Assembly: GCA_027485005.1 (NCBI GenBank)
Contig: JAIXRX010000179.1
Location: 1 to 32,400, forward strand
From: Alphaproteobacteria bacterium
GTDB taxonomy: Bacteria > Pseudomonadota > Alphaproteobacteria > Rickettsiales > JAIXRX01
Reading direction: 5' to 3'
DNA: 32,400 nucleotides
In this document: piece after piece, positions 55-32,055 of the stretch
Layout: every line of letters begins with the position of its first letter
How positions within the stretch are numbered: the first letter of the stretch is position 1
The notes under the pieces: model-generated
Database searches by the model: none
The model's input: the letters and a program-made list of their open reading frames with translations, nothing else
Told to the model about the DNA's origin: nothing
Translations under genes and position numbers: made by a program

Positions 55-366
55 TCAGCGCAAGGTATTATTGCTTGTACAGGCAATGACAAGAGAAGAG
101 TAAAAGGAGGAGGGGCTATAGTATCCCTTCATTGCCGAAGTAGTAATGATTGGATCAAAGATTCCAATCCAAGGAACCTCGCTCCAACGACCTTCACCTA
201 CACTGGCTTTAATGTGCCAATTATTATCCGGTATGGTTATCCTATCATTTATGAGGATAGGAACAGACTGCCGAAAAAGCATTCCCAATGGATGGGAAGC
301 AAAGGGCTGATCTTTTGCCTTTAGATATTCTTCGGATATTTTATTGATTGCATCGCGTAGCTGCAT
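55..366 (-). CDS. MrcB-N/DUF3578-like domain fragment (N-terminal DNA-binding domain of McrB-type type IV restriction proteins), probably a truncated remnant
   Basis: The translation contains GEGRWSEVPWIGIFDPIITTSAMKGYY, the signature block of the DUF3578/MrcB N-terminal domain. The ORF ends about 20 aa later in a low-complexity tail, and no NTPase part follows before the window edge. Confidence 0.5.
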   Translation of the reverse strand: MQLRDAINKISEEYLKAKDQPFASHPLGMLFRQSVPILINDRITIPDNNWHIKASVGEGRWSEVPWIGIFDPIITTSAMKGYYSPSSFYSSLVIACTSNNTLR

Positions 367-2259: not shown

Positions 2260-3222
2260 GTGAATTTTTTGGCTATCAGGGTAAGAACAGGGAATCAACC
2301 CGTTACGGCCCAAATAGCTGGCGCACGGAATACTATGATCAATATCGGCATCGAGAAACATCAAGGGCTAGTCTACGAAGTGGACGCCAATCGCGGACGC
2401 CCGGTGTGGCCGACGCCTGTTATTACGCCTGCCATATTTGTATATCCAGCCGATGGGGAAATGAAGGCGGAGTCGTCAAATAATGTATTCGGCTATCGAT
2501 TTAGGGAAGACTCATACGATCCCATCGCCCGTATCAGGCGCGGAAGATTTTATAGCGCAGAAAATAGCTCGCAGCCTCAATACTGGCTGGTGTCGCCCCA
2601 CCCAGCTGTGCCAATGGAGTCCATTGCCCCCGATATCCACGCGCACAATAAGCAGCTGGAAATTTTCTATGGCAATCCCATTTGGCACAAGCATATCGAA
2701 GGGAAGCGTGAGCTGCCCCTGGTGCTTCTTGGCGCCGACGCGCGCTTCACTGCATGGACGATTATTAGCGTGGAAGCGATTGTGACAGGGGAAGATCTTG
2801 TTACGCTCAAAGCCAGGAGCAGCTTTGGGATATTGCCCAAAATCATTGATGCTAATGTGCCTGAAGCATTTAAGGCTAAGCTTACAGAAACACTGGCATT
2901 ATTTGCCGACGAAGTGCATAGGGCCAGCCCTGTGTCAGTCATTGACCGCGCGCGCGATGCTGCAACCCATGCGCTACTGGCCTATTTTCAGCTGCAAGGG
3001 AGCGATGCGCAAGATTTGGGCAAGCTGATTAAGCGCCTACAAGACGTAGATAAGGCCGTTGCCGCCAATGCCGCTAACATTATTGCCCGCTTGCACGCGC
3101 GCGCAAAACCATCAGAACAAGAAAAGCGCGAGCTACGATCGATCCGAGAGCAAGACGCGGAACTGGCAACCCAATGCCTAGGCGCATTGCTCTGTGAGAT
3201 TGGCTTGGCGGAATGGGCGTAG
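2260..3222 (+). CDS. Hypothetical protein, no domain recognised (GTG start at 2260; ATG at 2335 is an alternative start)
   Basis: Long ORF with coding-like composition, convergent with the HNH gene (13 nt between stops). It has a helical C-terminal half. I recognise no motif. Confidence 0.55.
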   Translation: MNFLAIRVRTGNQPVTAQIAGARNTMINIGIEKHQGLVYEVDANRGRPVWPTPVITPAIFVYPADGEMKAESSNNVFGYRFREDSYDPIARIRRGRFYSAENSSQPQYWLVSPHPAVPMESIAPDIHAHNKQLEIFYGNPIWHKHIEGKRELPLVLLGADARFTAWTIISVEAIVTGEDLVTLKARSSFGILPKIIDANVPEAFKAKLTETLALFADEVHRASPVSVIDRARDAATHALLAYFQLQGSDAQDLGKLIKRLQDVDKAVAANAANIIARLHARAKPSEQEKRELRSIREQDAELATQCLGALLCEIGLAEWA

Positions 3223-3235
3223 CTGCTGAGTTGGC

Positions 3236-4402
3236 TTATTCCCGAATCAGTCGTCCAATTTTATGGTACAGATTTTCTTTCACGACGTCACGATCTGCAC
3301 CATGGTGCAGACGGCGGTGACAATTAGGGCATAACGCTACCGCATTGCTGATTGTGTCACTTCCACCATCCGCGAGAGTGCGAATATGGTGAACCTCTAA
3401 AAATGGCTCTCCAGCAAAAGTTACAAACGGTGCAGCGCTGTCACATGACTCGCAGTGTCCCGCCGCTTGTTGACGCACATAGGTGACTACCGTTGCCAGC
3501 CTCTCATAAGCAGTAGCGGTTCTTTCAGTGCGGGCGGGCTGACTATTGCCAGTTGGAGGGGTGATAAACTCATGCTCTTTGAGCTTTTCTGCGCGCTCCT
3601 CGAGCACACTTACATCGCTTGTGGGCTGATAGATGCCAGTATCGACATGCCCCAGCGCCTCTAAATAAAACGTTATTTTCTCTTTACCCGCGGGCCCCAC
3701 ATGTCGAGCGGGCGTGTACCCTTTTATGTAAGGATAGGACAGTTCGTCGAGAATAGCGGAAATATTGCGCATCCGAAAGCTGAGTGAGGCAAGCGTGCGA
3801 TTGCTAAGCTCGTCCTCCAATAGTCGTAATAGCACATTGTTCTTGTTATAGGTTATGCCGGCCTTTTCTAGAGCAAGCATTTCTAAGTAACCCTTCACCG
3901 CTGCTTCGAACTCTTTGTCAGTCCAATGATCGGTTTCATCGGATGTTGTGGCAACAGCTGGAAAATCACCCGTGGTTTTTGACAGTACCCAAAACCCTAG
4001 AGGATCAGTGTGCTTGGATGGCTCAATAGCGCGATCTTCACAGAATTTCTGAAAAGCCTCGACCATGGTTGTGTAATTTGCAGAGCCACTTTCCACCCGA
4101 TCTTGAACCAATACCTGGTCTAAATAGGCGCGTCCGCGGCCACGATACACTTTCTCGCCAAGCGCTTCCCATTGCTCGAGGGTTTTTCTGTCGTGAAAAG
4201 CCACGTAGGCTCCTGGACAAAAATCAAAGCCACCATCTGGATTGGCTACAGCGACGAAGCGTTTTGCATTCTTAATCCTGCCGCGAAAGAATTTCTGCTC
4301 CGCAGGCGTGCCCTTTTCCAAGGCCATGAATCTACGAAAACCAGCATGCAAATCCTCATAGGATGCAACTAGAGCCATTGAAGAGTTAGACATATTATCC
4401 AT
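3236..4402 (-). CDS. McrA-like HNH endonuclease with an N-terminal/central putative DNA-recognition region
   Basis: The C-terminus CESCDSAAPF...LEVHHIRTLADGGSDTISNAVALCPNCHRRLHHG is a canonical HNH (CxxC...HH...N...CxxC H) motif. The central WTDKEFEAAVKGYLEM...NRTLASLSFRMRNISAILDEL block resembles the head domain seen in McrA-type HNH proteins. The start overlaps the stop of the upstream 1711-aa gene (ATGGATAA). Confidence 0.85.
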   Translation of the reverse strand: MDNMSNSSMALVASYEDLHAGFRRFMALEKGTPAEQKFFRGRIKNAKRFVAVANPDGGFDFCPGAYVAFHDRKTLEQWEALGEKVYRGRGRAYLDQVLVQDRVESGSANYTTMVEAFQKFCEDRAIEPSKHTDPLGFWVLSKTTGDFPAVATTSDETDHWTDKEFEAAVKGYLEMLALEKAGITYNKNNVLLRLLEDELSNRTLASLSFRMRNISAILDELSYPYIKGYTPARHVGPAGKEKITFYLEALGHVDTGIYQPTSDVSVLEERAEKLKEHEFITPPTGNSQPARTERTATAYERLATVVTYVRQQAAGHCESCDSAAPFVTFAGEPFLEVHHIRTLADGGSDTISNAVALCPNCHRRLHHGADRDVVKENLYHKIGRLIRE

Positions 4403-7400
4403 TCTTCGGTCCCCTTTTAAGATCTTCTTCTAGGCGATGCGCTTCTGGAACCCCACAACGCACCAGTCCAGCCAGCAAATATTCAAGACTGGTGCGCAAA
4501 GACTGATCCGTTGATAAGACAGCACCATCAATTTCTAAGACTGTTCTAAACCAAGCGCACAGCCGTCGCCCAATACTGTGTTCAATCCAGAACGTGTTGT
4601 CAGATGAATACCCTGTCAGCCATGCGTTACCAGCGGCAATGACGAACGGTAAATGTGCTGCCCTAGGAGATACTTCGATTAGGTTAAGAGTGACGATTGC
4701 AAGAAACAGGCATGGGCCACCTGTGACCAGTTCTTGCAATGTGGGTAGGAAGGGATGCAGGCGGTCAACGCCTTTTGACAGCAGGTAACATTTTGCATTG
4801 CTGAGCATGTATTCGTTAAAGAAAATAGCTCCGAGTGCGGGGGCGATATGGAATTCAATGGTGTACGCTCGATCACGAGCAAGCCAGTACCACCCGCGGC
4901 TGGTCATCATGCGGCGAGTGAACGCAGCGCGTATGTGTATTGCTTGCGCTTCTTCCAGCCCTCGATCGTTAAAATACACATGGTCAATGCTTGGCAGAAA
5001 GGTAGCGATGGCATCGAAGAAGGATTCATCAGGCAACGAAGCAATCGGTGTAAGCGCAAGTTCGTCAATCCCTGCTAAATCAAGCCCTGGAAGGCAATGG
5101 GCTAGTAGGTCGAAATAAGTATTATTCCATTCTGTGGGCGGATCGCTCACGTCATCATCTAGGGCAAGACCCGCACCGTTTGCGGCCATTGTCCAAGCGC
5201 TGTAGGTTTGCGCGATATCACGTAGCCATGGTCTTTGAACGACATTGGAAAGCTTTACGACACTTTTGAGCCATAGTGCTGCTCCTTGAGATTCTACATA
5301 TTGATCTGGGAATGTACCTTCTACTTTACACTCCTCAGGCTGTTTCTTACCCCCCGGTACACGAAGACGCCGCTTAGGGCGCGCTGGTTCTACTGGAAAC
5401 TGGGGCCATTCAGGCTCTGGGTGCGTGCCGTTAAGCCATGCTATCTCCGCATCTACAGCTGCTTTAACTTGCCGCTGGTGTTTTCTTGCTCGCGCTGCAG
5501 CGTTTTTCTTCCGTTCATCCCACAGGCCTCTGTTAGGCTTAATTCGGGTGGCAAAAGCACAGCGCAGTATCGCGCGCGGTAGACGCTCATCAAGAGCAGC
5601 GATAGTATCCGCCACTGCTGCAAAACCGTGTGCTGCTGCTGGATTATCGCGCGCGGCAACTTCCAAAATGACAAGAATATCATCGCTAGAAACAGCATCT
5701 TTCAGCAGAAGAACCATCCCGACAAAGGCTATGGCAATTGGATTATACCGCAGGCCGGAACGTACCCAGTGGACAGAATCATCCTCACTTTGCATAGCAA
5801 GTGCAAATGTTTCGCGTATCCACGCTGCGTGCTGCGTACGTAACTCGGCACTGCCATCTCTAACAGCAACTAAGGCAGCAATACAAATCGCCTCATCCCG
5901 CATTTTCTGTTCATCTTCATCGCCATCCTGAGTTTTTGCGTTCTGTGCCCATGTGACCGCTGCTTCCGCAAATTCAGGAGAGGCGCGTTCAGGATGATTT
6001 AGGATGATGCTCAGAGTCATCTGCATATTTGCATCTGTTACCCGCTCCTTATGGGCTTCCTGTATTGGTTCAAGATGCTTAGCCTCGGACTCAGGAGGCA
6101 CGTACTGACGCACCGTTGTTGTTGAGCCATCTTTTAATGTGACAGTGGCTTTCGGCCAATTAGCCGGATCAGCAAGGTTGAGGGCATGGAGAACCGTGAA
6201 AGCAGGGTCACTTAGGTCTGATTGTGTATCTGGTGGTCCTAATCTTTCGGCTTCACGACGTAAGTTCGTAGTAAGAGTTGCCCGTAATTCATCTGGCCCA
6301 TGAACGGCGTACTGACCAATAAGCTCTTCAAGGTTGTAGCGTCTTGAGGCTCGTTCTTGCAGGCTGGCCACACTGGATGCTCCGCCAGGTTCTTTTTGCA
6401 GCCCTTTGATGCCAAAAATATCAGGATATTCATAGTGATCATGCACCTTACGCTCACGGTCGATGCAAAGAAGCTCAGGGCAGGAAAGAAACGGGACTGC
6501 TGCTTCACGTGACTTCGGCCAGTGCGATATTAGCAGATCAACTGCTACCAATAGGAAACATGCAGGTACGCTCGACGAGCCAAGAACATCGTTCAAAACT
6601 TTATCAAAAGGCTCTCCGGCTTCAATGCGACGATGCGCCCAGGCTTCAAGTGCCATAAGGGCTGATTTCACGCAGTCTTCGCTCGTGCCCTTTTCGCGCG
6701 ACCACATATATGTTTGTTCCCATGGAAACACCCGCTCACCATCGGGAAAGTATATTGTGATGTTATTATTTCCATGGGGCTGTCCCCGGCTACGGAACGA
6801 AACATCATAGTCAACTAGGCGACGAATCAGTGGTAGGCCATGTTCTGGGGCGGCGGTGAGCAGTTCTAAGAATGGCCCTTGATTGGGCGATGGTGGAAGG
6901 AACTCATGGTCAATAAACCCGAAAGCTCTTTCATGCCTATATCGGCGCTCGTATTCTGGCTCTAACTTTTCCTCTTGGATAAGCGCTGCTGCTGTGAATT
7001 CTGCTAGCTCCTTTGGCACTGCACTTGCAAGTGCACCACGGAATTTCAGGACGCTACGCACCACTTCATCATTATGATTACGCTGCATTAGGGATTGCAG
7101 ATATTGGGCCGCCAGCTCGGGTGTTTGATTACAGAATAATAGGAATCCCGTGCGAAGGGCGGATTCGAGCGAGGCAAGCTGCTCCCGGTCAAGCACACCT
7201 CCAAACACCTCATACCGAGTGCGCCATTCTCCCTCACGTGACTCTTCGATTTCATTCAGCCATAAATAAAGCCAGTGCAGCAAACGGGGCGTTAAAGGAT
7301 CAAGACCGATGGTGCCCATAGACCATTTAGTGTAAACATTAACTGCGTCAGGAATGGCCACTGCAGGAAGGTCTTTATCAAGAATCAGTAACCAAGTGAG

Positions 7401-9530
7401 CAACCTTAACCACGATGCTCCACGCGGCACATTAAGATTCACTGGTATCACTTTCGGGTCTGCACCTGCTGCGGCAAGGCGCTCAGTGATAGGTTCTACA
7501 TCAACCGCCATCATGGTTCGGATGAGTTCTTTCAGTATCTTTGCGTCATCCGCTAACAGATGGGTTGATGCGCGCTTTAATAAATCGGTGCCAACTTCCG
7601 AATGCACTAACGCGAGTAGCGCCGCGCGCCGCCATGTACCATGCGCCCCGTCACGACTGAGTGAGGTAAGAAGCGTATGCCAGCTAATACTGTCGGTGGC
7701 ACGTTCAATCATCATGCGTGCGGCGAGCTCTACCCCTCTGGCTAACGACGAAGAGGCGGGCCGGTCGAACGGTAGACGCTCAACCAGTGTCGCATCGGTA
7801 AAGAGCAAGTTAGCTATAGCCCACTCCCGCAGCACATCATGACGGAAGATCATACGGTCATTACCAAGGTCGCGCAGTGTTCCGCTTGCAACCAATGCCT
7901 CAATCGGAGTGGCAGGGTGAGTGCTCACATCCACCGGACCGGCGAGGCTTAATGCTCGTTCCGCCATCGCCCTTATCACGCGCGCGCGCTCCCGACGTCC
8001 GGTATCCTTTCCATCAGCGGATTTCCACCACTGCTCAGCCATATCGATTTCAGTGCGGGGGATTGGATCATCAGACGCCTGTTCGGCGAGGCGTGCAAGA
8101 CGGAACAGGTTGCGGACGACGTCACGAGCTGGGTGATTATTAGCTAGGAGCGCCTTGAGCCTTGGTGCAGAATCTCGAAGTTCGTTAATCTCGCTATCGC
8201 TTAATTCGCCTATAACAACTGGCGTTGCGCGGCCTAGCTGATTCAGAACGTCAATAGGCAGCCAGTTTGGCTCGTCTACACCGAAACTTTGACGGGCCGT
8301 AGCAATAATTAAGAAATGGGGCACCTTCGCTGCTTCGCGCACCAGGTCAATTACCGTGAGGCGTTCCTCGACTCCGAAAGAATCAAGATTGTCTATAAAG
8401 AGAATTGCGCCACCATCGGTTGCTAAATCCGATAGTAATGCATGTGCTGAGCCATCAAAACCAAGCGCAGACTTAAGTGCTAGCCATCCTTTCGGTATTG
8501 TGCGGCTAGGACTGAGTACAATCACTTGTCCTTCTGTAGCTACCTGTTCTGCAAAGTGACGCAGCACTCCCGACTTACCGACACCAGCGTTTCCACGGAT
8601 TTCTACATATCGGCCTTCATCACATGCGGTGTGGATGGCAGCAATATGTTCATGCCGGGTTAGCATTACATTGCCCACGCGCGTTTCCATATCGGTCAGC
8701 GCCTTGTCAGTTGCTTCCGCTAATGCAGCGCGGACAGAAAAGAAACGCCGTTCACCGATAAACCGGAATGATTCAGGGCGTAAGTCTTCAAGTAAGCGTT
8801 CGCGCGTGCGATCTCCGCCGCTTGCTGCAATCGTGAAGGCGAGTGTGTTGAGGCTTGACCATAGATTCCCTGCACGGTTTGCATCATCCGAATGTAGGAT
8901 GTGGATTGCGCGCTCCTTCGCAAGCTCTTCGGATGCAGAACCTTGTGCTGTAAAATCGAAAACTAGAATCTGAAATCTGCGCAGCAGTGCCCATACTGTC
9001 TCATCATCGTATGGCGCTCCAGCACTTTGGAGGTGCGCGCGGAACGTACTGATAAAAGCACGCATGTTGTCGTTACCGGAACCGGCACGCAGTATCCGAG
9101 CATGGAATGTCGTAGCATCACCTATTTCGCGCGCCCAGGTCAAAACATCCTGATAAGGTCCGTCGATTTGGCGGGAGCGTTTGGCAGTAGCAACAGCCAG
9201 TTCGTATTTACTGTTCCAAAAATCTGGCCTCCGCGAAGCAGCGGCGATTTGTCCCACGACGTCTTTAAATACATCATCAGAAGGAGCAAAGGTTAGCTCG
9301 CGTTTAACCTGTATTTCCAAAACCGCAGTTTTGCCCTGCGCATTCTGTGCGTGGACGATAACATCATCAAGATGCCGCTCTTCACCGGCACGCTGAAATT
9401 CAACGCGCGCGACTGTCCAGCCGGGTAATCCTCTCGGCTCGCTGCCTGCCAATAGCGAAAGTAAATAATACGCGCCGACCTGGCTCTCAAAAAGACTACC
9501 GGCCGGCCCGCTTGAGGCTGGACTTGCCAT
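4395..9530 (-). CDS. 1711-aa multidomain protein with an N-terminal Cap4/Mrr-like (DUF4297-type) PD-(D/E)xK nuclease, a P-loop (STAND/AAA-like) NTPase and a ~1300-aa helical C-terminal region; Avs/NLR-like antiviral ATPase candidate
   Basis: The N-terminus GSLFESQVGAYYLLSLL...VEFQ...HLDDVIVH...LEIQVKR gives a D..(E)QxK nuclease motif (DNA ~9303-9401). Walker A is GNAGVGKS (8571-8594) and Walker B is ILFIDNLD (8382-8405). The rest is a very long alpha-helical C-terminus with no motif I recognise. Confidence 0.8.
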   Translation of the reverse strand: MASPASSGPAGSLFESQVGAYYLLSLLAGSEPRGLPGWTVARVEFQRAGEERHLDDVIVHAQNAQGKTAVLEIQVKRELTFAPSDDVFKDVVGQIAAASRRPDFWNSKYELAVATAKRSRQIDGPYQDVLTWAREIGDATTFHARILRAGSGNDNMRAFISTFRAHLQSAGAPYDDETVWALLRRFQILVFDFTAQGSASEELAKERAIHILHSDDANRAGNLWSSLNTLAFTIAASGGDRTRERLLEDLRPESFRFIGERRFFSVRAALAEATDKALTDMETRVGNVMLTRHEHIAAIHTACDEGRYVEIRGNAGVGKSGVLRHFAEQVATEGQVIVLSPSRTIPKGWLALKSALGFDGSAHALLSDLATDGGAILFIDNLDSFGVEERLTVIDLVREAAKVPHFLIIATARQSFGVDEPNWLPIDVLNQLGRATPVVIGELSDSEINELRDSAPRLKALLANNHPARDVVRNLFRLARLAEQASDDPIPRTEIDMAEQWWKSADGKDTGRRERARVIRAMAERALSLAGPVDVSTHPATPIEALVASGTLRDLGNDRMIFRHDVLREWAIANLLFTDATLVERLPFDRPASSSLARGVELAARMMIERATDSISWHTLLTSLSRDGAHGTWRRAALLALVHSEVGTDLLKRASTHLLADDAKILKELIRTMMAVDVEPITERLAAAGADPKVIPVNLNVPRGASWLRLLTWLLILDKDLPAVAIPDAVNVYTKWSMGTIGLDPLTPRLLHWLYLWLNEIEESREGEWRTRYEVFGGVLDREQLASLESALRTGFLLFCNQTPELAAQYLQSLMQRNHNDEVVRSVLKFRGALASAVPKELAEFTAAALIQEEKLEPEYERRYRHERAFGFIDHEFLPPSPNQGPFLELLTAAPEHGLPLIRRLVDYDVSFRSRGQPHGNNNITIYFPDGERVFPWEQTYMWSREKGTSEDCVKSALMALEAWAHRRIEAGEPFDKVLNDVLGSSSVPACFLLVAVDLLISHWPKSREAAVPFLSCPELLCIDRERKVHDHYEYPDIFGIKGLQKEPGGASSVASLQERASRRYNLEELIGQYAVHGPDELRATLTTNLRREAERLGPPDTQSDLSDPAFTVLHALNLADPANWPKATVTLKDGSTTTVRQYVPPESEAKHLEPIQEAHKERVTDANMQMTLSIILNHPERASPEFAEAAVTWAQNAKTQDGDEDEQKMRDEAICIAALVAVRDGSAELRTQHAAWIRETFALAMQSEDDSVHWVRSGLRYNPIAIAFVGMVLLLKDAVSSDDILVILEVAARDNPAAAHGFAAVADTIAALDERLPRAILRCAFATRIKPNRGLWDERKKNAAARARKHQRQVKAAVDAEIAWLNGTHPEPEWPQFPVEPARPKRRLRVPGGKKQPEECKVEGTFPDQYVESQGAALWLKSVVKLSNVVQRPWLRDIAQTYSAWTMAANGAGLALDDDVSDPPTEWNNTYFDLLAHCLPGLDLAGIDELALTPIASLPDESFFDAIATFLPSIDHVYFNDRGLEEAQAIHIRAAFTRRMMTSRGWYWLARDRAYTIEFHIAPALGAIFFNEYMLSNAKCYLLSKGVDRLHPFLPTLQELVTGGPCLFLAIVTLNLIEVSPRAAHLPFVIAAGNAWLTGYSSDNTFWIEHSIGRRLCAWFRTVLEIDGAVLSTDQSLRTSLEYLLAGLVRCGVPEAHRLEEDLKRGPKNG

Positions 9531-9626
9531 TATAATTTATCCCTCCCCAAGGCATGCTAAATAATTCATTGCTGTGTTATAATCCTACCCATTTTAACGG
9601 CATCATTTGTTTATTGTGTTCTTATG

Positions 9627-10589
9627 TTATGCATTATTGCTCTGTTTAAGAGCGGTTACGACTTGGAAAATAAATTCCGTAATTATCAGAGCGTTTAGAC
9701 TGCTGCACAAATTATCATAAACCACATGCCCGTGAATGGCCGCATGACGGTTAGGAATAGGCTTCATCGAAAAAGCCATCTTGTGGTCAACTGTATTACA
9801 GTAGTCATAGATATGATCTAAGGACGAAAATAGAACAAACCCCCAATATCCTAGGTCTTGGAAATCATGCGTAGAAAGTGTGCCGGCTCTCTCTCGTAGA
9901 GTTTTTTGACTGGTAACCGTCTCCATTTCTCCTGTGTGAAGTTCGACTCGTGTTACCCGCTCTATTTCTGGGAATAAGGATCTGGCTACTAGGCTATATA
10001 ATCCATTTTCATGGGCTTGAAGCGCCTGCTTAAATACATTTTTGGCCGTATTATCGATATTTAGCCCATCAATAGTATCAAGAAATTGCTCTTTTACCTC
10101 GTCCCAATTCTCTCGATAATAATTTTCCAGAATTACGCCATCATGCTCAGCTTCATTCTCATCAAGTAGTGCAAAAGGTGTCGAAGTATGTGGCAGCCAT
10201 CCCGCCGCCTCCAACCTTTCTTGATGGTTATGCATCCTCGCCAGTTTGGCCATAAATGGCTGAAATCCTGACGCAACGCGTTGCATGGATTCATTAAGCT
10301 GACGATATGGTTCATTAATGGCATCAAACATGGATGCCATACGCTTGGTGAATTCTGTTGTTTGGCGATGTAGCTCCATCATCGCAGAAGACGGCTGGAG
10401 CGCGCGTAATAATGCCTGATCTGGCAAGCCCAAAGCCGCAGATTCGAATGCATTTTTAGGCACTACATTCGCTATTCTCTGCATCAAGCCATTCGTGGGC
10501 ATTGTTAGTGATTCAAGAATCTTTGAAGTTGAATCGCTAATACGGGGCAGCCCTCTTACAGCAGCAGAAATTTTATCGATATCGCTCAT
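9627..10589 (-). CDS. Hypothetical protein with a possible C-terminal HEPN-like domain (Rx4H motif)
   Basis: There is a good SD (AAGGGGGG) 4 nt upstream of the ATG. The C-terminal half has ALQAHENGLYSLVARSLFPEIERV followed by IPNRHAAIHG (R281-x4-H286, DNA 9732-9749), the arrangement typical of HEPN/Abi-type RNase domains. The gene is AT-rich relative to its neighbours. Confidence 0.6.
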   Translation of the reverse strand: MSDIDKISAAVRGLPRISDSTSKILESLTMPTNGLMQRIANVVPKNAFESAALGLPDQALLRALQPSSAMMELHRQTTEFTKRMASMFDAINEPYRQLNESMQRVASGFQPFMAKLARMHNHQERLEAAGWLPHTSTPFALLDENEAEHDGVILENYYRENWDEVKEQFLDTIDGLNIDNTAKNVFKQALQAHENGLYSLVARSLFPEIERVTRVELHTGEMETVTSQKTLRERAGTLSTHDFQDLGYWGFVLFSSLDHIYDYCNTVDHKMAFSMKPIPNRHAAIHGHVVYDNLCSSLNALIITEFIFQVVTALKQSNNA

Positions 10590-10683
10590 AGTGCCCCCCT
10601 TGCTTCACTTCACCTATAAACGAATTTTCCCACATTATCCATACGGTCACATATAAGGTAGAGCGTTGATATTTTTTATGACT

Positions 10684-11277
10684 TCAACGTTCATACTCGT
10701 ACCAGCCCGACTGACCATTCTTCCTAAATTTTATTAGCTTCTTCTGTACCAAAATTCGAATATCGCGCTTAGCCGTGCGCTCAGCGACGCGCCAGCTGAT
10801 GGCCAGATCGGTGCTGGTGAGTCGCCTGCCTTTGCGTATTTCTTCCAGGAACCATACCTGACGTCGATTGAGCGTTGGGGATAATAATCCTACTTCGGGA
10901 TTCCGAGGGGTGACAGATTTGTCACCCCTCGACTGGTAGTAACTGCTGCTTTCCTGGAGGCGTATTTGCATCCGTTGTGGGATATTTTCACGCAAGGCTG
11001 CGTGCCATAATTCTGGCCAGCCGATAATCTCGCAGATGGCTCGTAAGACTGCAGGGTAATGTGCTGCTAACGCGAGCAAATGCGCCGACTTTGGCGGATT
11101 CTGACGGCGATGCCATTTGGAAATAGTATTACTGTTGATGCCAGTGATCTGGCCAATGTTTTTGATGGTCGATGCGACATCCAAATGGTTCTCCCGCAGC
11201 GCCTGGCTCACCCGCTTGGCAACCTGCTGATCATCGATTTTATGAGGTAATATATGGTGGATTTTAGTGAAGGACAT
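10684..11277 (-). CDS. Dual-HTH transcriptional regulator (N-terminal XRE-like HTH, C-terminal DeoR/winged-HTH-like)
   Basis: Starting at MSFTKIHH (ATG at 11275-11277): IGQITGINSNTISKWHRR is HTH-like, and the C-terminal LTSTDLAISWRVAERTAKRDIRILVQKKLIKF is typical of a wHTH. The longer 246-aa ORF in the track would overlap the divergent recombinase gene. Confidence 0.7.
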   Translation of the reverse strand: MSFTKIHHILPHKIDDQQVAKRVSQALRENHLDVASTIKNIGQITGINSNTISKWHRRQNPPKSAHLLALAAHYPAVLRAICEIIGWPELWHAALRENIPQRMQIRLQESSSYYQSRGDKSVTPRNPEVGLLSPTLNRRQVWFLEEIRKGRRLTSTDLAISWRVAERTAKRDIRILVQKKLIKFRKNGQSGWYEYER

Positions 11278-11357
11278 AAATGCTCGCTCCTTGTTAAGTT
11301 GAATGGACAAGGAGCATTTCCGCGATTCAGCGGAGTAACGGAAGTATACACGGAACC

Positions 11358-12929
11358 ATGATATACCACGGCAATACGACATCAGAGTTGGGCGATACCA
11401 ATACACCAAAGCGCTATGCGGCAATGTATGTCCGCATGTCGACGGATCACCAGAAATACTCCACTGAGAACCAGGCAGATGCTATCCGCGAATACGCTGC
11501 CCGGTACCATATCGATATCATCGAAACCTATGCCGATGCCGGTAAAAGCGGCCTGAAGCTGGATGGGCGCGATGCGCTCAAACGCCTGATTGATGACGTG
11601 CAGTCGGGCAACGTGCGCTTCAATATGATCCTGGTGCTCGACGTCACCCGCTGGGGACGGTTCCAGGATGCGGATGAAAGCGCCTATTACGAGTATATTT
11701 GCCGCCGTGCCGGTATAGACGTGCAGTATGTTGCCGAACAGTTCGAGAATGACGGCAGCCCTGTTTCCACCATCGTTAAAGGCGTGAAACGCGCTATGGC
11801 TGGGGAATATAGCCGTGAGCTATCTACGAAGGTTTTTGCCGGGCAATGCCGCCTCATTGAACTTGGGTACCGTCAAGGTGGGCATGCGGGCTATGGCCTA
11901 CGCCGGGTACTCATCGATGAACAGGGCAATATCAAAGGCGAACTGAAGCGCGGAGAGCATAAAAGCCTACAGACAGACCGAGTGATCCTTGTGCCGGGCC
12001 CCGTAGAAGAAGTGGACACCGTGCGCTGGATCTATCGTGCCTTTACCGAGGAATCATTGCAGGAGAGCCAAATTGCCGCACTTTTGAACCAACGCGGGAT
12101 TCTGACGGATCTTGGCAGAAACTGGACCCGTGGCGTCGTCCACCAAATCCTCACCAATGAGAAATACATTGGTAACAACGTGTTTAACCGGGTTTCGTTC
12201 AAGCTGAAGAAGCGTCGCGTCAGCAACACACCCGATATGTGGGTCCGTGCAGACGGGGTTTTTGAGGCGGTAGTCGAGCCGAGTTATTACTATACCGCGC
12301 AGGGAATCATCCGCGAGCGTAACCGCAAGTTCAGCGACCATGAAATGCTGGATAAGTTGCGCCAGCTGCACGAACGCCAGGGTTGGCTCTCCGGCATACT
12401 GATTGATGAAGCCGACAGCATGCCCTCAAGCAGTGCCTACGCGCACCGTTTTGGCAGTCTCATCCGGGCGTATGAGTTAATCGGCTACACGCCCGACCGT
12501 GACTACCGCTATATCGAGATAAATCGCCATCTGCGCCAGATGTATGCTGGGGTCGTCGAGGATACGATCCGTAAAATCAAGGATCTTGGGGGTCATGTCC
12601 GCCGCGAGGTGACGTCCGATCTGCTCTTCGTCAACGACGAGCTCAAAGTATCCATTATCATCTGCCGCTGCCAGCAGACCAAAGTCGGCCAATATCGCTG
12701 GAAGATTCAGCTCGATAGCGGCCTGGAGCCCGACATCACCATTGCTATTCGTATGGACACAGAGAACAAGCGGCCGCTGGATTATTACCTGCTGCCCTCC
12801 CTTGATATGGAGAACCCCAATATCAGGCTGCAGGAAGAGAACGGCCTGGCACTCGATGCCTACCGATTTGATGATCTGGAGCTGTTTTTCCTGATGGCGG
12901 AACGTATTCCGCTGCGTGAGGCCATATGA
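11358..12929 (+). CDS. Large serine recombinase (resolvase/invertase N-terminal catalytic domain plus recombinase domain)
   Basis: AAMYVRMSTDHQ carries the catalytic Ser. The blocks SGLKLDGRDALKRLIDDVQSG...LVLDVTRWGR and the recombinase-domain region GYRQGGHAGYGLRR also fit. An alternative start is at 11424. Confidence 0.9.
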   Translation: MIYHGNTTSELGDTNTPKRYAAMYVRMSTDHQKYSTENQADAIREYAARYHIDIIETYADAGKSGLKLDGRDALKRLIDDVQSGNVRFNMILVLDVTRWGRFQDADESAYYEYICRRAGIDVQYVAEQFENDGSPVSTIVKGVKRAMAGEYSRELSTKVFAGQCRLIELGYRQGGHAGYGLRRVLIDEQGNIKGELKRGEHKSLQTDRVILVPGPVEEVDTVRWIYRAFTEESLQESQIAALLNQRGILTDLGRNWTRGVVHQILTNEKYIGNNVFNRVSFKLKKRRVSNTPDMWVRADGVFEAVVEPSYYYTAQGIIRERNRKFSDHEMLDKLRQLHERQGWLSGILIDEADSMPSSSAYAHRFGSLIRAYELIGYTPDRDYRYIEINRHLRQMYAGVVEDTIRKIKDLGGHVRREVTSDLLFVNDELKVSIIICRCQQTKVGQYRWKIQLDSGLEPDITIAIRMDTENKRPLDYYLLPSLDMENPNIRLQEENGLALDAYRFDDLELFFLMAERIPLREAI

Positions 12930-13819
12930 GGCAGGACCGCACTACGCGCATGGAACAGGTGCGCATTGAGGACATTAATATCCTGAATCCCCGCGTGCGT
13001 AATCCGAAGAAATTCATGGATATGACGGGCAATATCGCCAATGTCGGCCTTAAGCGCCCCATCACCATTACCCCAAGCAAAGCAAAAGCCGCCCACGGCA
13101 AGCCCTACGAGCTCGTATGCGGCCAGGGCCGTATTGAGGCGTTCCTTGCCTGCGGCCAGAAGACCATCCCGGCCATCATTATCAATGCCACCGAAGAACA
13201 GGCCTTGATCATGAGCTTGGTTGAGAACCTGGCGCGCCGGCAGCATCGTTCGCTCGAGTTATTGCATGGGATCGAGGTGCTACGCCGCCAGGGATATGAT
13301 GCCAAAACCATTGCCCAGAAAACCGGCCTTTCCCTCGAATATAGTAACAGCGTCATCACCCTCCTGGAAAAGGGTGAGGAGCGTCTGCTTACCGCCGTTG
13401 AGGCAGGACAAATTCCTGTGAGCGTGGCGGTAAAGATTGCGGAGGCCGGCGATAATGAGCAATTGGCGCTGCAGGAGGCCTATGAGAGCAAGGAGCTCAG
13501 GGGTCGTAAGTTAATGATCGCCAAGCGTTTACTCGAAACCCGCAAGCGTCATGGCAAGGCCATGAAATACGGTGGGCGCAGCGGCCGCAGCGGCAAGTCG
13601 AATCTCTCTGGCAGCGATATCATGAAGATCTATCAGAAAGAGGTCGACCGCAAGCGGCTGCTCACCCGCAAGGCAGATATCACCAGTGGCCGGCTGCTAT
13701 TCATCACGGAGGCGCTGCGCCAATTGCTGAAGGAGGATCATTTTGTGACACTCCTGAAGGCAGAGAAGCTATCGACCATGCCCAAGCAGCTTTCCCATGT
13801 ACTGGACAGCAGCACATGA
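12926..13819 (+). CDS. ParB/Srx N-terminal domain protein (ParB-like nuclease/partition family)
   Basis: INILNPRVRNPKK...GLKRPITI...YELVCGQGRIEAFLACG...SLVENLARRQH is a ParB N-terminal box arrangement, followed by an HTH (IAQKTGLSLEYSNSVITLL). An ATGA overlap links it to the recombinase stop. Confidence 0.85.
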   Translation: MRQDRTTRMEQVRIEDINILNPRVRNPKKFMDMTGNIANVGLKRPITITPSKAKAAHGKPYELVCGQGRIEAFLACGQKTIPAIIINATEEQALIMSLVENLARRQHRSLELLHGIEVLRRQGYDAKTIAQKTGLSLEYSNSVITLLEKGEERLLTAVEAGQIPVSVAVKIAEAGDNEQLALQEAYESKELRGRKLMIAKRLLETRKRHGKAMKYGGRSGRSGKSNLSGSDIMKIYQKEVDRKRLLTRKADITSGRLLFITEALRQLLKEDHFVTLLKAEKLSTMPKQLSHVLDSST

Positions 13820-14727
13820 GCCAGAAACGCCGCTTCCCCAAAAGTGATATCAAAATCGGGTTCAGCCAAGAAACACTGACGCTCGATATGGCGCAGATCA
13901 TCCCCCTCAAACTCTTAACCAGCCATACCAAAGCAACCGATAAGTACAGGCAGATCCTAGCTTCCATTAAGGAAGTTGGCGTCATCGAACCCCCGGTCGT
14001 GACGCACTCCACGCAAGGACGTAACCGGTACATGCTGCTCGACGGTCATATGCGGCTAGAAGCGCTGCGTGAGCTGGGCGAGACGGAAGTGATCTGTATC
14101 GTGGCGGAGGATGACGAATCCTTCACCTACAACAAGCATGTGAACCGTCTATCGGCCATCCAGGAGCATAAGATGATCCTGCTCGCGGTCGAGCGCGGCG
14201 TGCCCGAGGAAAAGATCGCCAAAGCCCTTAATCTCGACGTCAGCAGCATCGTCCGCCGGCGCAACCTGCTCGAGGGCATCGCCCCCGAGGTAGCCGAGCT
14301 CCTCAAGGACAAGCTGGCATCCGTCGGTATCTTTCCGGTGCTGCGTAAAATGAAGCCCGTGCGGCAGGTGGAGGCCGCCATGCTCATGTGCGACGCCGGT
14401 AACTACTCGCTTTCTTATGCCAGGGCATTGCTCGCCGCCACGCCCAAAGAGCAGCTCATCAACCCAGAAAACCCAAAATCCGTGAAAGGTCTGACCGACG
14501 AGCAAATGTCCCGCATGGAAACCGAAATGGCCAGCCTGCAGCGTGAGTATCGCCTCATTGAAGAAAACTATGGCACGGATGTCCTGAACCTAACCCTCGC
14601 CAAAGGCTACATCACCTCGCTGCTCAGCAACGCGCGGATCGTGCGTTATCTTGCGCAGAACCATTCCCAGATGCTGGGGGAGTTTCAGAAGGTCGCGGAA
14701 ATGAAGGCGCTGGTGACGGAGCGGTAG
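13816..14727 (+). CDS. ParB-like / RepB C-terminal-domain-type protein (second paralogous ParB-fold gene)
   Basis: IKEVGVIEPPVV...YMLLDGHMRLEALRELG is a DGHxR ParB/Srx motif. It is followed by IAKALNLDVSSIVRRRNLLEGIAPEV (HTH) and a RepB-C-like tail. An ATGA overlap links it to the upstream gene. Confidence 0.85.
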   Translation: MSQKRRFPKSDIKIGFSQETLTLDMAQIIPLKLLTSHTKATDKYRQILASIKEVGVIEPPVVTHSTQGRNRYMLLDGHMRLEALRELGETEVICIVAEDDESFTYNKHVNRLSAIQEHKMILLAVERGVPEEKIAKALNLDVSSIVRRRNLLEGIAPEVAELLKDKLASVGIFPVLRKMKPVRQVEAAMLMCDAGNYSLSYARALLAATPKEQLINPENPKSVKGLTDEQMSRMETEMASLQREYRLIEENYGTDVLNLTLAKGYITSLLSNARIVRYLAQNHSQMLGEFQKVAEMKALVTER

Positions 14728-14906: not shown

Positions 14907-17900
14907 CTAAGTCCCGTCAGATGCCTGCACGACTGGATTTTGTAATTTTATTCTAAATAATTGCGACAAAGCTAAAATATGTTGTTTTAGAGCCTCGTCG
15001 CCTGAAACAAATAAATCCTGCATTCTTTCTTTGAAAAATTCTCGAGTTGTCTTGGGTGAAGATTTAAGCCATTTCAGTACGTCATCGGCATTAGCGGTTA
15101 GCCATGTAGCTCCTTCTGCACTGACAAGAAGCGGAATGACAATAGTACGAATAATATCATCTGGCTTTTCTTCAAAGTGTCCATCGTTAATAAACGAAGC
15201 CCCTCCAGCATTCAGTAGAGGTAAATGGTTGGCTGTTCCCTGCAACATTTGGTCGCGAACATTTCTTAGTATAGTTTGACGGCTATTTTCAGAAAGCAGG
15301 GAAGCCGCACCGAACCATCTTTGAATGATAGCCGAGTCGCCGCCTGTTATCATGTCAGGGACGATTGCGGTCATAGCCTCGAATAATGCCTGACCATGTT
15401 CGAAAGTATTCTTTGTTAGTTCTAATAGCTTTCTGGCTATTTGTAGTGGTTCAGCATTGTTTCTAATAGATTGGTTCCATATATCGCTGTTCAGATTCTG
15501 CAATTTGGTAAAAAGAGAATTCCTGGATTGCTCAGAAATGTCTTCATCATTTGACACAATCAAAGCCTCAAAAATCCTTACCGCGTTTTGTTCGAGCGGA
15601 GCGGCTTCAAACTTTTCCCAGAAGGTTTGGTAGCCTGTAATTATATTAAGAAAGGCATCATGCTTTTCGCTATCAATGCATAGAAGGTGCTTGGGCAAAT
15701 TATTGATAATGTCTTCGATAGGCAGCCGCCCCATGTCTTCATCATCTAAGCGTGTTGTGCAGATTGAACGAATAAGAGGTTGTAGACGTTGATTATCATT
15801 TGCTGCCCTGCTCAGAATGGTAAAGTTATCTCGCGAATGGTACTCGTCAAGACAGTCGCTGATAAGGGCGACAATTTCCTTTCTGTCATCCAAGGCAGCT
15901 TCCAAGTTATTAGCTATATTAATTCCCTCGTTCGCGCGTCCTTCACCATTTGTGTTATTGAATGCAGGATTGGTCAGAATGATCAAAGCCAGAATACTGG
16001 CCTCTACCTCAATTGCCATAGCGTTATGAGCTTGAGCGAATTTTTCAAATAGGAAACCTTCATTGGAAAGATTTGTTAAATGTGCTGCAGCTTTCGATTC
16101 TTTTTTGTTGCGCAGTTTGCCAAGCGTTTCCAAGGCTGTTTTTACGCCGGGTTGACCAATAGGAACACTCCTGATTCTTTGTGCGGCCGCTTCTGTATAT
16201 GGTTCTAAAGGCCATGTATCTTTGCACTTTAAAAGGCTGAAAAGCTTCTTCTCTACTGTATCATGCTGATTCTGGTCATCTAACTGACGGCCCAATTCAG
16301 CCATCACCCCTGCTTCATCCTCATGTATAATTTGCTTCATCACATCCGGGCGCTCCTCAAGCAAATATGCCATCTCTGCATAAGCTTGAGTATTTCCGGT
16401 GAATTTTATTTCAGGCATTCTGGATTTTTTAGAGGCTGCGCCATCGAAGATTATTTCGACACAATCACTCCAACTTTGAGCAAACGCCTTATCGTTAAGA
16501 AGGCTGGCCTCTACCTGAGAAAGGCGAGCGGTAAGAGGTTCTATATACTTTTGAACGTCAGCTTCAGCACAGTTTTTAATAAGCGCCTCGATACCTTTTA
16601 CATGGTCAGGCGTAAGCCTCTGCCAATTATTTGGTGCTCCAGCTTGGCGCTTGACTAGCTGCTTCCACACAGATTCCACCCAAGCATCCGCCTCAAACGA
16701 TTGACTGCCGAATAACAGACATGCATTAGCTGTAAATTCTGGTTCTTGGCTCGCACTTTCCAGGACATTTTCAAGAACAATATCGAAGCCCGGTATTACT
16801 GCCCATTTAGTAAACTCATTAACATTCCCATCTTGAATTGCCTTTGTGAGCGGCTCTTTCATTACAAGCTGAAGGCCCTTTTCTTTTTCTACGCCGAAAT
16901 GCAGCCCAGCTACACTTGCTTGCCAGTGTTCATCCAAGGCTGCAATTTCTGAATGATCGGCACTGATAAAATCAGCTACAGATTGCTCAATTTTATTTTT
17001 ATGGATGGCGAAGTATGCCACGGAATAAAAAGATATTTCGTTGCGCCATTGGAGCCATAAAACGGCGATCGAGTTTACCAGCGTATTTATAAGACGCGGC
17101 GTAACTTCGTTCTTTTCAGAAGCAAGGAATTTTTCATAGAATCTACCAACTTCATATTTCCAACTGGATGTGCATTCCTTAGCAAAAACCTCCTGCATTT
17201 GAGTATCCAGGTATTTCTTCCAATCCGAGAATACCGGCGGAGGCACACGGAAAGTGAGGTCGAAGGTTTTATCCATGAATGCCTGGGCCAATCTTTTGGC
17301 TTCATCATTATCTGAATGACCCGCAGCGTACATACGTTGAACCGCATCAGGGTCAATTGGAAGAAGAATGGTTGGTAGAGAAGTATTTATCTCATTTGCA
17401 TTCCTTTCTTCGGCTCCTAGGAAGAAACTACGAATTGTTGCCCATAACTCAACTGCAGCAGCCTCTGGCAGCCTATCCAGGTTATCAACCACAAATATAT
17501 AACGATGCTTGGGGTTTGACACATGCTTCAGCAAATCGCGGAACATGCGCTGGAACTCTATGGTCGTTGTGTCGGGAGAGCGAGTAACGCGATGGTTTAC
17601 ACTTTCTACAGCCCGATTCATAAACAAGGTCAAAATAGATTCCTTGTCGTAAGGTGGCCTATGAGTTGTCCAAAAGCGTTTTGTGAATGGATTACAGAAG
17701 GGGCGGCGACGTAAATAAATCCAGCCTGCAACTAAAGCTGGTGCACAAACAGCTAAGCAGCCCAAAACAAAAGCTGTAACCTCCAATTTCCCCCATACCA
17801 GCTCAATACCTTCTTTATGTTCGCCCGGATTTATCCAAGAAAATCCTAACGGAAGCGATATAGAAAAAACTGTTTCTTTAAGCCAGTCATGGTCAATAAA

Positions 17901-18371
17901 TGGGAAACCTATTGGAACTAGAAACAGCGATAATAAAATCCAACGCCCAGATTTGGTTAAGCTAGGCGTTGTGGTTGTTTGAGTATCCTCAACTTGGCCG
18001 TTAAGTATATTCAAGCGTTGCTTCCAATAATCGTCGTCGGAAAGTCCCAAATAATTGACTAATGTTTCAAGGAATGAGCGACGCGGTGGGTCGCTTTGAT
18101 GCCGCCAGGCATCGTAAATAAAAATATGCGTCTTCTTATCGGTTTCTTTATCTAGCCAATTTTGAATAAGGCGTATTACAGTTGACTTACCGCTACCCCA
18201 TCGACCGACTAAACCAATAACTTTTAGGTCGTCGTGCGTCTGAATTACCGAAGCAACGGCTTTTGCAACACGGTCATGGGTTCCAAACGAATCAGCTTCC
18301 GCGGCAGTATCTTTTATAAATCTTAGTGGAGGCGGCTCATTTTTTTCTGTTACATGCTGAACTTTGCTCAT
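14907..18371 (-). CDS. KAP-family P-loop NTPase with two transmembrane helices inserted in the NTPase domain (Tmn-like)
   Basis: Walker A is VGRWGSGKST (18180-18206). FIYDAWRHQSDPPRRSFL is the KAP signature. Hydrophobic segments lie at about aa 148-165 and 203-225, and Walker B is YIFVVDNLDR. The ATG at 18371 has AGGGAG 6 nt upstream, and the ORF could extend to 18386. The gene is markedly AT-rich. Confidence 0.9.
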   Translation of the reverse strand: MSKVQHVTEKNEPPPLRFIKDTAAEADSFGTHDRVAKAVASVIQTHDDLKVIGLVGRWGSGKSTVIRLIQNWLDKETDKKTHIFIYDAWRHQSDPPRRSFLETLVNYLGLSDDDYWKQRLNILNGQVEDTQTTTTPSLTKSGRWILLSLFLVPIGFPFIDHDWLKETVFSISLPLGFSWINPGEHKEGIELVWGKLEVTAFVLGCLAVCAPALVAGWIYLRRRPFCNPFTKRFWTTHRPPYDKESILTLFMNRAVESVNHRVTRSPDTTTIEFQRMFRDLLKHVSNPKHRYIFVVDNLDRLPEAAAVELWATIRSFFLGAEERNANEINTSLPTILLPIDPDAVQRMYAAGHSDNDEAKRLAQAFMDKTFDLTFRVPPPVFSDWKKYLDTQMQEVFAKECTSSWKYEVGRFYEKFLASEKNEVTPRLINTLVNSIAVLWLQWRNEISFYSVAYFAIHKNKIEQSVADFISADHSEIAALDEHWQASVAGLHFGVEKEKGLQLVMKEPLTKAIQDGNVNEFTKWAVIPGFDIVLENVLESASQEPEFTANACLLFGSQSFEADAWVESVWKQLVKRQAGAPNNWQRLTPDHVKGIEALIKNCAEADVQKYIEPLTARLSQVEASLLNDKAFAQSWSDCVEIIFDGAASKKSRMPEIKFTGNTQAYAEMAYLLEERPDVMKQIIHEDEAGVMAELGRQLDDQNQHDTVEKKLFSLLKCKDTWPLEPYTEAAAQRIRSVPIGQPGVKTALETLGKLRNKKESKAAAHLTNLSNEGFLFEKFAQAHNAMAIEVEASILALIILTNPAFNNTNGEGRANEGINIANNLEAALDDRKEIVALISDCLDEYHSRDNFTILSRAANDNQRLQPLIRSICTTRLDDEDMGRLPIEDIINNLPKHLLCIDSEKHDAFLNIITGYQTFWEKFEAAPLEQNAVRIFEALIVSNDEDISEQSRNSLFTKLQNLNSDIWNQSIRNNAEPLQIARKLLELTKNTFEHGQALFEAMTAIVPDMITGGDSAIIQRWFGAASLLSENSRQTILRNVRDQMLQGTANHLPLLNAGGASFINDGHFEEKPDDIIRTIVIPLLVSAEGATWLTANADDVLKWLKSSPKTTREFFKERMQDLFVSGDEALKQHILALSQLFRIKLQNPVVQASDGT

Positions 18372-18441
18372 GCTTGTCTCCCTCATACCGCATCACCACT
18401 TGCAGCAAACGTTATTTAGCCCCCGATGATTGAAGGCAATG

Positions 18442-25301: not shown

Positions 25302-26255
25302 ATGCCGCAAGCCAGCAGAGTGACTGCTAAAACAGCCCGCTATATCAAACTTGGAGGTGGCGGCGGATGGGAAGCCCAGTGCCTGAAAGAGGGCACCATG
25401 CGGCTGGGCTATTATGAAGTGCCCCATGAGCTAGGCCTCAAGCGCGACAAAGAGGCGATCAAGAATATCTATAAGGACACTGCTGGTTCGGTAGGGTCTG
25501 CCTCTGACCATGCACGCCAGGTAGTGGATTTTTATGACCCAGCCCCGGATGTGCTCTGGATCACCTTTGCCGATGGGCATTTATGGTGGGCGAAGGCTAC
25601 CCCGGAGATCACTTATTACGGCAATGACCCTGCAATACATATCGAGGGTAGCCGGTCACGTAAAACGGTCGATGGGTGGCATAAGACCAGCTTAGGCGGC
25701 AAGACCCTGAGGATCCTTGACCTAAATGGCGAGCTGACCAAGACGGGGGCCTATCGCGGCACTATGTGTGATCTAAAGCCCCATATGCGTGATTATGTGT
25801 TGCGCAAAATTAACGACGAGTTGCTGCCGGAGCTGGTGGAAGCGCAGGAAGCGATGGCTGATCTGCTGCATGCCGTGCAGCGGATGATCGCGATGCTGCA
25901 TTGGCGTGATTTTGAGCTGCTGGTAGAGCTGATCTTCAGCCATAGCGGCTGGCAGCGTGTCAGCGTGGTGGGCGATGGGCTGAAAACCACCGATATCGAG
26001 CTGCTGCTTCCGGTTACCGGTGAGCGTGCTATGGTGCAGGTGAAGTCGCAGACATCGCAAGCACAGCTCGATGAATACATCGCGGCATTCGCACGCTGGG
26101 ACATGCAGCGGCTGTTTTATGTCTATCACACGCTTAATAACGCCATGGCACTCGATGTGGAAGATGCACGCGTAACCCTCATCGGGCCTGAAAAGCTATG
26201 CACCATGGTCCTGCGTGCAGGGCTGGTAGAGTGGCTCATGGGCAAAGTGGGCTAA
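25302..26255 (+). CDS. Mrr-like (PD-(D/E)xK) restriction endonuclease-fold protein with an uncharacterised N-terminal domain
   Basis: The C-terminal WRDFELLVELIFSHSGWQRVSVVGDGLKTTDIELLL...AMVQVKSQ matches the Mrr_cat pattern (DFE..V..L, GiD, QVK). An AGGA SD lies 7 nt upstream. Confidence 0.75.
   Translation: MPQASRVTAKTARYIKLGGGGGWEAQCLKEGTMRLGYYEVPHELGLKRDKEAIKNIYKDTAGSVGSASDHARQVVDFYDPAPDVLWITFADGHLWWAKATPEITYYGNDPAIHIEGSRSRKTVDGWHKTSLGGKTLRILDLNGELTKTGAYRGTMCDLKPHMRDYVLRKINDELLPELVEAQEAMADLLHAVQRMIAMLHWRDFELLVELIFSHSGWQRVSVVGDGLKTTDIELLLPVTGERAMVQVKSQTSQAQLDEYIAAFARWDMQRLFYVYHTLNNAMALDVEDARVTLIGPEKLCTMVLRAGLVEWLMGKVG

Positions 26256-31979: not shown

Positions 31980-32055
<76 letters not shown>

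Follow-up and report, generated by a model that had tools for sequence, protein, structure and literature searches.

The 32,400-nucleotide (nt) stretch analysed here (hereafter the window: contig JAIXRX010000179.1, positions 1 to 32,400, assembly GCA_027485005.1, from an alphaproteobacterium of the Rickettsiales lineage JAIXRX01) carries on its minus strand a giant open reading frame (ORF), the end of which overlaps the start of an HNH nuclease ORF. The giant encodes a distant Avs4-like antiviral STAND protein of the single-gene type, and the HNH gene encodes a three-part McrA-family endonuclease. We propose that they are two independent defence genes lying next to each other in the cargo hotspot of a mobile defence island rather than a two-gene system, and we hold this to be likely. 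The giant family consists of solitary genes that would not need a partner gene, and the HNH gene is the anchor gene of an element family, in which the slot before it takes alternative cargo.

The giant ORF (4395..9530, ATG start, 1711 amino acids (aa)) and the HNH ORF (3236..4402, ATG start, 388 aa) overlap by 8 bases, with the HNH ATG at 4402-4400 and the giant TAA at 4397-4395. The minus-strand sequence of the junction is gaATGGATAAtatg, in the longer context AAAAGGGGACCGAAGAATGGATAATATG, and a second in-frame ATG of the HNH gene, encoding Met4 (4393-4391), lies 1 nt past the giant stop. The coordinates and the junction confirm an earlier reading of the window (the sequence-only reading), and every motif quoted there was found in the sequence. 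Since it extends for 1711 codons in DNA of 50% G+C, the giant is a real gene and not a chance ORF. Scanning both ends of the giant for promoters and terminators yielded no more candidates than shuffled sequence does, and since no promoter- or terminator-like signal above chance lies between the two genes, their co-transcription is plausible here. The two are probably co-transcribed in the window and in one related locus, L095. Insertion into a pre-existing transcription unit would likewise give co-transcription.

The giant is a solitary gene in its family

The sequence-only reading had suggested one sensor with two nucleases, one in cis and the HNH in trans, and had named co-conservation of the pair as the test on which this would stand or fall. 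The HNH gene is not co-conserved with the giant. More than 1148 homologues of the giant were found; nearly all of the best 120 are full-length, with 54-61% identity to the window protein. The hosts of the clade are mostly environmental (Nitrospirota, Actinomycetota, Burkholderiales and rhizobial megaplasmids). We fetched 88 loci encoding giant homologues, and in 56 of them the giant is complete and 1.2 kb or more of sequence follows it; a few of the loci are duplicates, so that independent counts are somewhat lower. The HNH gene was found in none of the 56, and when the neighbours in the window were compared with the 88 loci by tblastn it was again found in none, the sole match being a weak HNH motif upstream in L059. 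A profile hidden Markov model built from 120 HNH homologues detected an HNH gene downstream of one of the 74 complete giants for which 300 nt or more of flank was available, namely L095. This locus aligns collinearly with the window through 11.6 kb at 87% identity, and the pair there is therefore the same arrangement by descent. Even the giant of L008, which is 91% identical to that of the window, lacks the HNH gene, and what comes next there is the beginning of a DUF6602-like gene.

Clustering of the flanking ORFs in the 56 loci found a conserved neighbour on neither side of the giant. The co-conservation of a trans effector across the clade, as for multi-gene Avs, was not observed. Annotated giants on plasmids (28-45% identity; Neorhizobium, Rhizobium and Pseudomonas) stand alone and are labelled 'ATP-binding protein' or 'hypothetical protein', and the family members listed carry essentially no precomputed Pfam domain. 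On long contigs, the homologues sit amid AbiE, toxin-antitoxin, insertion sequence, integrase, helicase, DISARM-like and restriction-modification genes. The giant had no match in the phage collection.

The HNH gene anchors a family of mobile elements

Copies of the HNH gene at 90-93% identity were found in L009, L095, L096 and L100, with or without a giant. The backbone that accompanies them in the window includes, as identified by Pfam, genes for a helix-turn-helix (HTH) protein (10684-11424, minus strand) and a large serine recombinase (11358-12929, plus strand) and two ParB/RepB-like genes (12926-14727, plus strand), and from 10684 to 14727 it is collinear with L095 and L096 at 86-87%. A further backbone gene, convergent with the HNH gene (2260..3222, plus strand), is listed as an ORF of 320 aa, is about 295 aa in relatives and is 86-95% identical in L009, L095, L096 and L100. 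The plan of the element would be ParB, ParB, serine recombinase and HTH at one end and the HNH and 295-aa genes at the other, with a variable slot before the HNH gene.

That slot is occupied in the window by the giant together with another ORF of 320 aa upstream of it (9627..10589, minus strand), which forms a cargo block with the giant and has no family match in the Pfam, PADLOC and NCBIfam scans. This ORF travels with the giant in the window, L008 and L095 and is absent from 80-plus other giant loci; among the 88 loci searched by tblastn, it and the HTH gene were present only in L008, the 91% twin. The element in L096 shares the ParB-ParB-serine recombinase-HTH backbone (86%) and the HNH gene (92%) and has no giant. 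In place of the 320-aa gene and the giant (window 4390-10756) it carries an unrelated gene of 759 aa (7718-9997), separated from the HNH gene by 3 nt. The 759-aa protein has no match in Pfam or PADLOC, and its gene is unrelated to the 753-aa ORF that follows the L070 giant, to any giant-locus ORF and to the window. It is a candidate defence gene in the giant's slot. A similar arrangement is likely on the P0244 contig, on which an incomplete gene, 555 aa or longer, stops 3 nt ahead of the HNH gene. The HNH gene of L009 (90%) lies behind a 279-aa gene and a SocA/Panacea gene, and in L100 a DUF6998 gene stands immediately before it.

The HNH stop and the convergent 295/320-aa gene enclose a second cargo slot, which has no occupant in the window (3222-3236), is filled by a DUF6998 gene in L095 (16302-16808) and in L096 (11172-13290) contains a DUF6602/NucC-like PD-DExK nuclease gene and a 287-aa gene.

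The overlap itself lies within what we describe as a portable HNH leader, or recombination junction (4390..4431, minus strand), made up of the Shine-Dalgarno-like AAAGGGGA, the HNH start codon and a stop codon that falls within HNH codons 2-3. About 30 nt of leader 5' of the HNH ATG are common to the giant-HNH and DUF6998-HNH junctions (approximately 73% identity), and L100 is homologous to the window until 29 nt upstream of the HNH ATG. Similar protein ends are seen, KRGPENG* for the L100 DUF6998 protein and KRGPKNG* for the window giant, both on the ATGGAT(A/G)A overlap. Homology to the window breaks at 4389 in L096 and at 4395 in L008. Because the overlap belongs to the portable leader, which is also joined to DUF6998, it is not evidence of a partnership specific to the giant. 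Any upstream ORF carrying the leader would be made to stop on the HNH start, and the coupling would thus not be giant-specific.

These observations bear directly on the possibility of a two-gene system, in which the triggered STAND sensor would use its cis nuclease and also activate the coupled HNH nuclease in trans. Such a system would fit the 8-nt overlap, the lack of a visible promoter or terminator between the genes and the retention of the arrangement in L095, and Avs2-trypsin + MBL is an earlier case of an Avs that works with a nuclease encoded by another gene. In that pair, which is described as a widespread and experimentally validated module, an Avs gene likewise lies beside the gene for a separate DNA-degrading enzyme, and the fused protease activates the partner by proteolysis. 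The giant, unlike Avs2-trypsin, has no protease domain with which to cleave a partner; its own effector is a nuclease, a route of activation is not apparent, and its pairing with the HNH is lineage-specific. Furthermore, the pair is seen in none of 56 loci by one count and in one of 74 by the other, the single case being a twin by descent, the giant occurs without the HNH in L008, and the HNH occurs without the giant in L009, L096 and L100. The leader that produces the overlap also couples the HNH gene to DUF6998, and the HNH core is widespread as a solitary gene. We therefore consider a two-gene system to be very improbable.

The HNH could instead be the fixed effector of the element, serving behind interchangeable sensor cargo such as the giant, the 759-aa protein and the DUF6998 protein. 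This would account for a constant HNH gene with a varying slot upstream, and for three different upstream genes that overlap the HNH start or end no more than 3 nt from it. The upstream occupants share nothing with each other, however, and one of them (SocA/Panacea) has an antitoxin-type domain. In addition, the giant brings a nuclease of its own and stands alone in other genomes, the HNH core occurs in nature as a lone gene, and the slot downstream of the HNH gene varies equally, as a plain hotspot predicts, which together leave this explanation very improbable. A related speculation, which we also regard as very improbable, is that the leader ties HNH translation to the slot cargo, with the HNH as a shared second-line nuclease behind swappable sensors and, separately, with a giant clade that, for all the Avs4 likeness of its sensor fold, may sense a phage protein other than portal. 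If true, the locus would be a modular one with swappable sensors and a fixed effector.

The HNH protein is an McrA-family nuclease, probably self-sufficient

The small gene had been read as an McrA-like HNH nuclease with extra domains of its own, and the profile and structure-database matches bear this out. Its catalytic domain (aa 256-385; 3248..3637, core 3305-3454, minus strand) is of the McrA type, with a beta-beta-alpha-Me finger and a Cys4 zinc site, and aligns with EcoKMcrA (6ghc) at E = 2.6e-28. The ORF matches Pfam HNH (6e-12) and the PADLOC Type IV model mREase_IV (1.8e-29). Of 120 homologues, 95% or more retain each of the residues H338, H339, N353, H362 and H366 and of the zinc ligands C317, C320, C358 and C361. 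The middle domain (aa 157-255; 3638..3934, minus strand) resembles the N-terminal half of PDC-S36 (PADLOC, 3.2e-22). Together, the middle and HNH domains (aa 157-388) correspond to a common stand-alone protein of about 238 aa, which is named '5-methylcytosine-specific restriction protein A' by some sources; 238-aa Pseudomonas proteins carry both matches as solitary genes, and the same is found in other genomes.

The N-terminal domain (aa 1-150; 3953..4402, minus strand) is rare, with 18 representatives among 1.8 billion proteins, and it gave no match in Pfam, nor did the first 156 aa among PDB sequences by phmmer. Most of the relatives of this domain that were scanned are proteins of 250-290 aa in which it is joined to HNH or HNH_2, a layout typical of self-sufficient reader-nucleases, and aa 1-150 are probably a DNA or modification reader. 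Compared with the Type IV HNH enzymes EcoKMcrA (6GHC) and ScoMcrA, the catalytic domain is homologous, with Cys4 and HH...N...H intact, and the modular layout of reader domain plus HNH is common to both. The difference lies in the reader, since the 5-methylcytosine reader of EcoKMcrA is unrelated to the N-terminal 255 aa of the window protein and the 6ghc alignment covers aa 256-385 only. The HNH protein is an McrA-family nuclease with a new domain combination, and by analogy is most likely a self-contained Type IV-like restriction enzyme, directed by modification or structure.

An alternative role for the HNH would be in the service of the mobile element, such as an HNH of the packaging or homing type that cooperates with the terminase, and not in defence against phage. 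In its favour, the HNH gene is a backbone gene, the window codes for the large subunit of a terminase (28209-29639), and a DUF5681 gene lies close by in L009. Against this, the catalytic domain is specifically McrA-like, with the Type IV match already given, the N-terminal domain recurs in small reader + HNH proteins, and the gene is about 24 kb away from the terminase, amid defence genes. We judge a service role very unlikely, and favour the Type IV-like restriction enzyme.

The giant is a deep-branching relative of Avs4

The giant had been recognised as having the layout of an antiviral STAND protein, and profiles, models and Foldseek comparisons agree with its division into a nuclease, a STAND NTPase and a large helical sensor. 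Its first 120 aa (9171..9530; all giant coordinates are on the minus strand) form a PD-(D/E)xK arrangement with the model order alpha-beta-beta-beta-alpha-beta (H11-28, E39-47, E54-62, E68-75, H86-99, E108-116) and the signature E15, D55/D56, E72-x-Q74-x-K76 (DNA 9303-9368). In homologue alignments of 20-48 sequences, D55, D56, E72, Q74, V75 and K76 are invariant, with E15, D55/D56, E72, Q74 and K76 invariant in 48. Nuclease activity is therefore predicted for this effector domain, which by itself found no match in Pfam or, using phmmer with the first 160 aa, among PDB sequences.

The STAND NTPase module (aa 290-600; 7731..8663) was defined by its motifs and by Foldseek and comprises a P-loop followed by helical and winged-helix subdomains. 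Its Walker A motif GNAGVGKS (8571-8594) and Walker B motif ILFIDNLD (8382-8405) contain residues that are invariant in the same alignments (G313, G316, V317, G318, K319, S320 and D380 throughout, and also A315 and D383 in the 20-sequence set). Pfam gave weak P-loop matches below the cutoff to AAA_16 and nSTAND_NTPase5. The remainder of the protein had been described as a helical tail of about 1300 aa; it is indeed helical but is not undivided, as some 200 aa belong to the STAND helical and winged-helix subdomains, followed by a sensor of about 1100 aa (aa 601-1711; 4398..7730) with the architecture of the EcAvs4 sensor in an AlphaFold2 model compared by Foldseek.

For an AlphaFold2 model of aa 1-640 (pLDDT 85), the best PDB folds found by Foldseek were EcAvs4 (2.1e-13) and SeAvs3 (2.6e-12), with lesser matches to the plant NLR RPP1, CED-4, Apaf-1, SAMD9 and Avs5, and 596 columns of the 640-aa model aligned to 8dgf_A. 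Since Avs4, Avs3, RPP1, CED-4 and Apaf-1 are its fold matches, the NTPase is of the STAND type and not the ABC type, which answers the question of STAND versus ABC/AAA that AlphaFold had been proposed to settle. It also undoes the likeness to Septu that had been drawn earlier. In Septu (PtuA ABC-type ATPase + PtuB HNH) an ATPase gene is likewise followed by an HNH gene, but the giant's ATPase has the STAND fold and not that of ABC/AAA_15/AAA_21, the sizes and domain sets differ, and neither the giant nor the HNH protein matches the PADLOC PtuA or PtuB model. Septu was therefore rejected.

The model of the sensor (1111 aa, pLDDT 83.8) matched 8dgf_A/B over about 1200 columns with E values of 1e-15 to 2e-16 and TMq of 0.61-0.65, the remaining matches being generic alpha-solenoids (E ~1e-5, TM ~0.2). 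When all PDB sequences were searched with a profile of 20 homologues, EcAvs4 (8DGF, E = 4.7e-7) was the only match, in three collinear segments covering the P-loop, aa ~618-765 and aa ~861-1086. The similarity to the Avs4 family profiles is confined to aa ~834-1081: the PADLOC Avs4 model (E = 2.3e-13) covers only aa 834-1078, about 250 aa, and the NCBIfam equivalog NF041815 (3.7e-15) scored 54.3 bits, short of its cutoff of 1500. Since the N-terminal and sensor models and the collinear profile segments all match EcAvs4, the giant is, on the models, Avs4-like along its whole length as regards architecture and fold, and very distant in sequence.

EcAvs4 is described in the literature as a portal-sensing antiviral STAND protein, and the Avs4 type is marked by portal binding, tetramerisation, DNA degradation and protection against phage. 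EcAvs4 shares with the giant the order of parts, in about 1580 aa against 1711 aa, and the N-terminal PD-(D/E)xK (Mrr/Cap4-type) nuclease, and both Avs4 and the giant are single genes in defence or mobile islands. They differ in sequence, the giant being about 12% identical in structural alignments and far under the curated Avs4 threshold. With SeAvs3 (8DGC), which senses terminase and has a Cap4-type nuclease, the similarity is in the nuclease and STAND half, whereas the sensor is unlike that of Avs3, with aa 601-1711 retrieving only Avs4. The giant is thus an uncharacterised, deep-branching member of the Avs4 type. The PADLOC candidate system PDC-M54 was rejected, as the match to PDC-M54A (E = 2.3e-9) is limited to aa 168-610 of the giant and no neighbour in the window matches PDC-M54B. 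A recent survey lists 589 STAND clades, of which 198 are defence-associated, 684 sensor clusters and Avs names up to Avs24 (Lee et al. 2026).

One subgroup of the giant family, of about 1880-1905 aa, has an extra N-terminal GNAT acetyltransferase domain (aa ~53-140) before the nuclease. It includes P0090, P0101, P0111, P0114 and P0115 (e.g. L004 8001-13679). In these proteins the GNAT and nuclease domains would represent two putative effector domains in cis, which is consistent with the usual modularity of Avs N-terminal effectors.

Proposed mode of action

For the trigger and the activity of the giant we infer a mechanism by analogy with EcAvs4. The C-terminal sensor would bind a conserved structural protein of the phage, for which the portal is the likeliest candidate, and ATP-dependent oligomerisation through the STAND module would then bring the N-terminal PD-(D/E)xK domains together. 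The assembled nuclease domains would degrade DNA and abort the infection. The giant would act without a partner gene, and the HNH would act independently as a Type IV-like endonuclease.

Several points weigh against this interpretation. The giant resembles Avs4 weakly in sequence (54 bits against 1500; ~12% identity in structural alignments) and therefore its trigger could differ from portal. For the HNH, modification dependence is deduced from family resemblance, and the N-terminal domains are unrelated to the EcoKMcrA reader. Finally, with the overlap and the missing promoter or terminator signal in the window and L095, there may be functional cross-talk between the two genes at the level of this lineage.

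Other genes in the window

At the low-coordinate end of the window, a 150-nt direct repeat with 88-90% identity between its copies (410-559 and 1960-2108) brackets a RelE-like toxin gene (960-1283) and an HTH/NadS/MqsA-like antitoxin gene (1283-1723). The second copy ends where homology to L095 and L096 starts (2108/2117). From its sequence, the repeat looks like an attachment or target site duplicated by tandem insertion of a small toxin-antitoxin island at the end of the element. A 103-aa ORF at the very edge (55-366, minus strand), containing ...EVPWIGIFD..., is maybe a gene fragment. The motif resembles the McrB-like Type IV N-terminal DNA-binding domain; PHROGs and PADLOC gave no match for the ORF.

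Beyond the ParB genes lies a further block of defence-type genes (14907-24474, minus strand). It encodes a 1159-aa KAP-family P-loop NTPase, whose resemblance to PifA/QatA is limited to the P-loop, a T5orf172/MUG113 protein (401 aa), a DEAD/ResIII helicase (685 aa) whose gene overlaps that of the T5orf172 protein, and an MmeI-type IIG restriction-methyltransferase of 926 aa (PADLOC 6e-282). L009 too has the MmeI, DEAD and T5orf172 genes, next to its cargo and HNH gene and with two additional genes separating MmeI from DEAD; the three may be a functional module of their own. In the window the block is followed by genes for an Mrr_cat-domain protein (25302-26255), a ParB-N-fused DNA methyltransferase (26509-27849), the large terminase subunit mentioned above and a large serine integrase of 623 aa (29905-31776), and by tRNA-Ala(GGC) (31980-32055), apart from which the Rfam scan of the window found nothing. 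The segment 25302-32055 has the appearance of a prophage-like element's integration end.

Implications

The analysis removes the tempting false lead of a new STAND-plus-HNH system. It also illustrates that a tight gene overlap can come from the shuffling of cassettes at a portable leader and not from a functional partnership. The Avs4-like clade to which the giant belongs has more than 1000 members and lacks defence labels, and its addition to annotation tools would improve the annotation of defence islands in environmental bacteria. With its well-conserved sensor, the clade would be a practical system for testing whether the Avs4 fold is in every case a reader of portal proteins.

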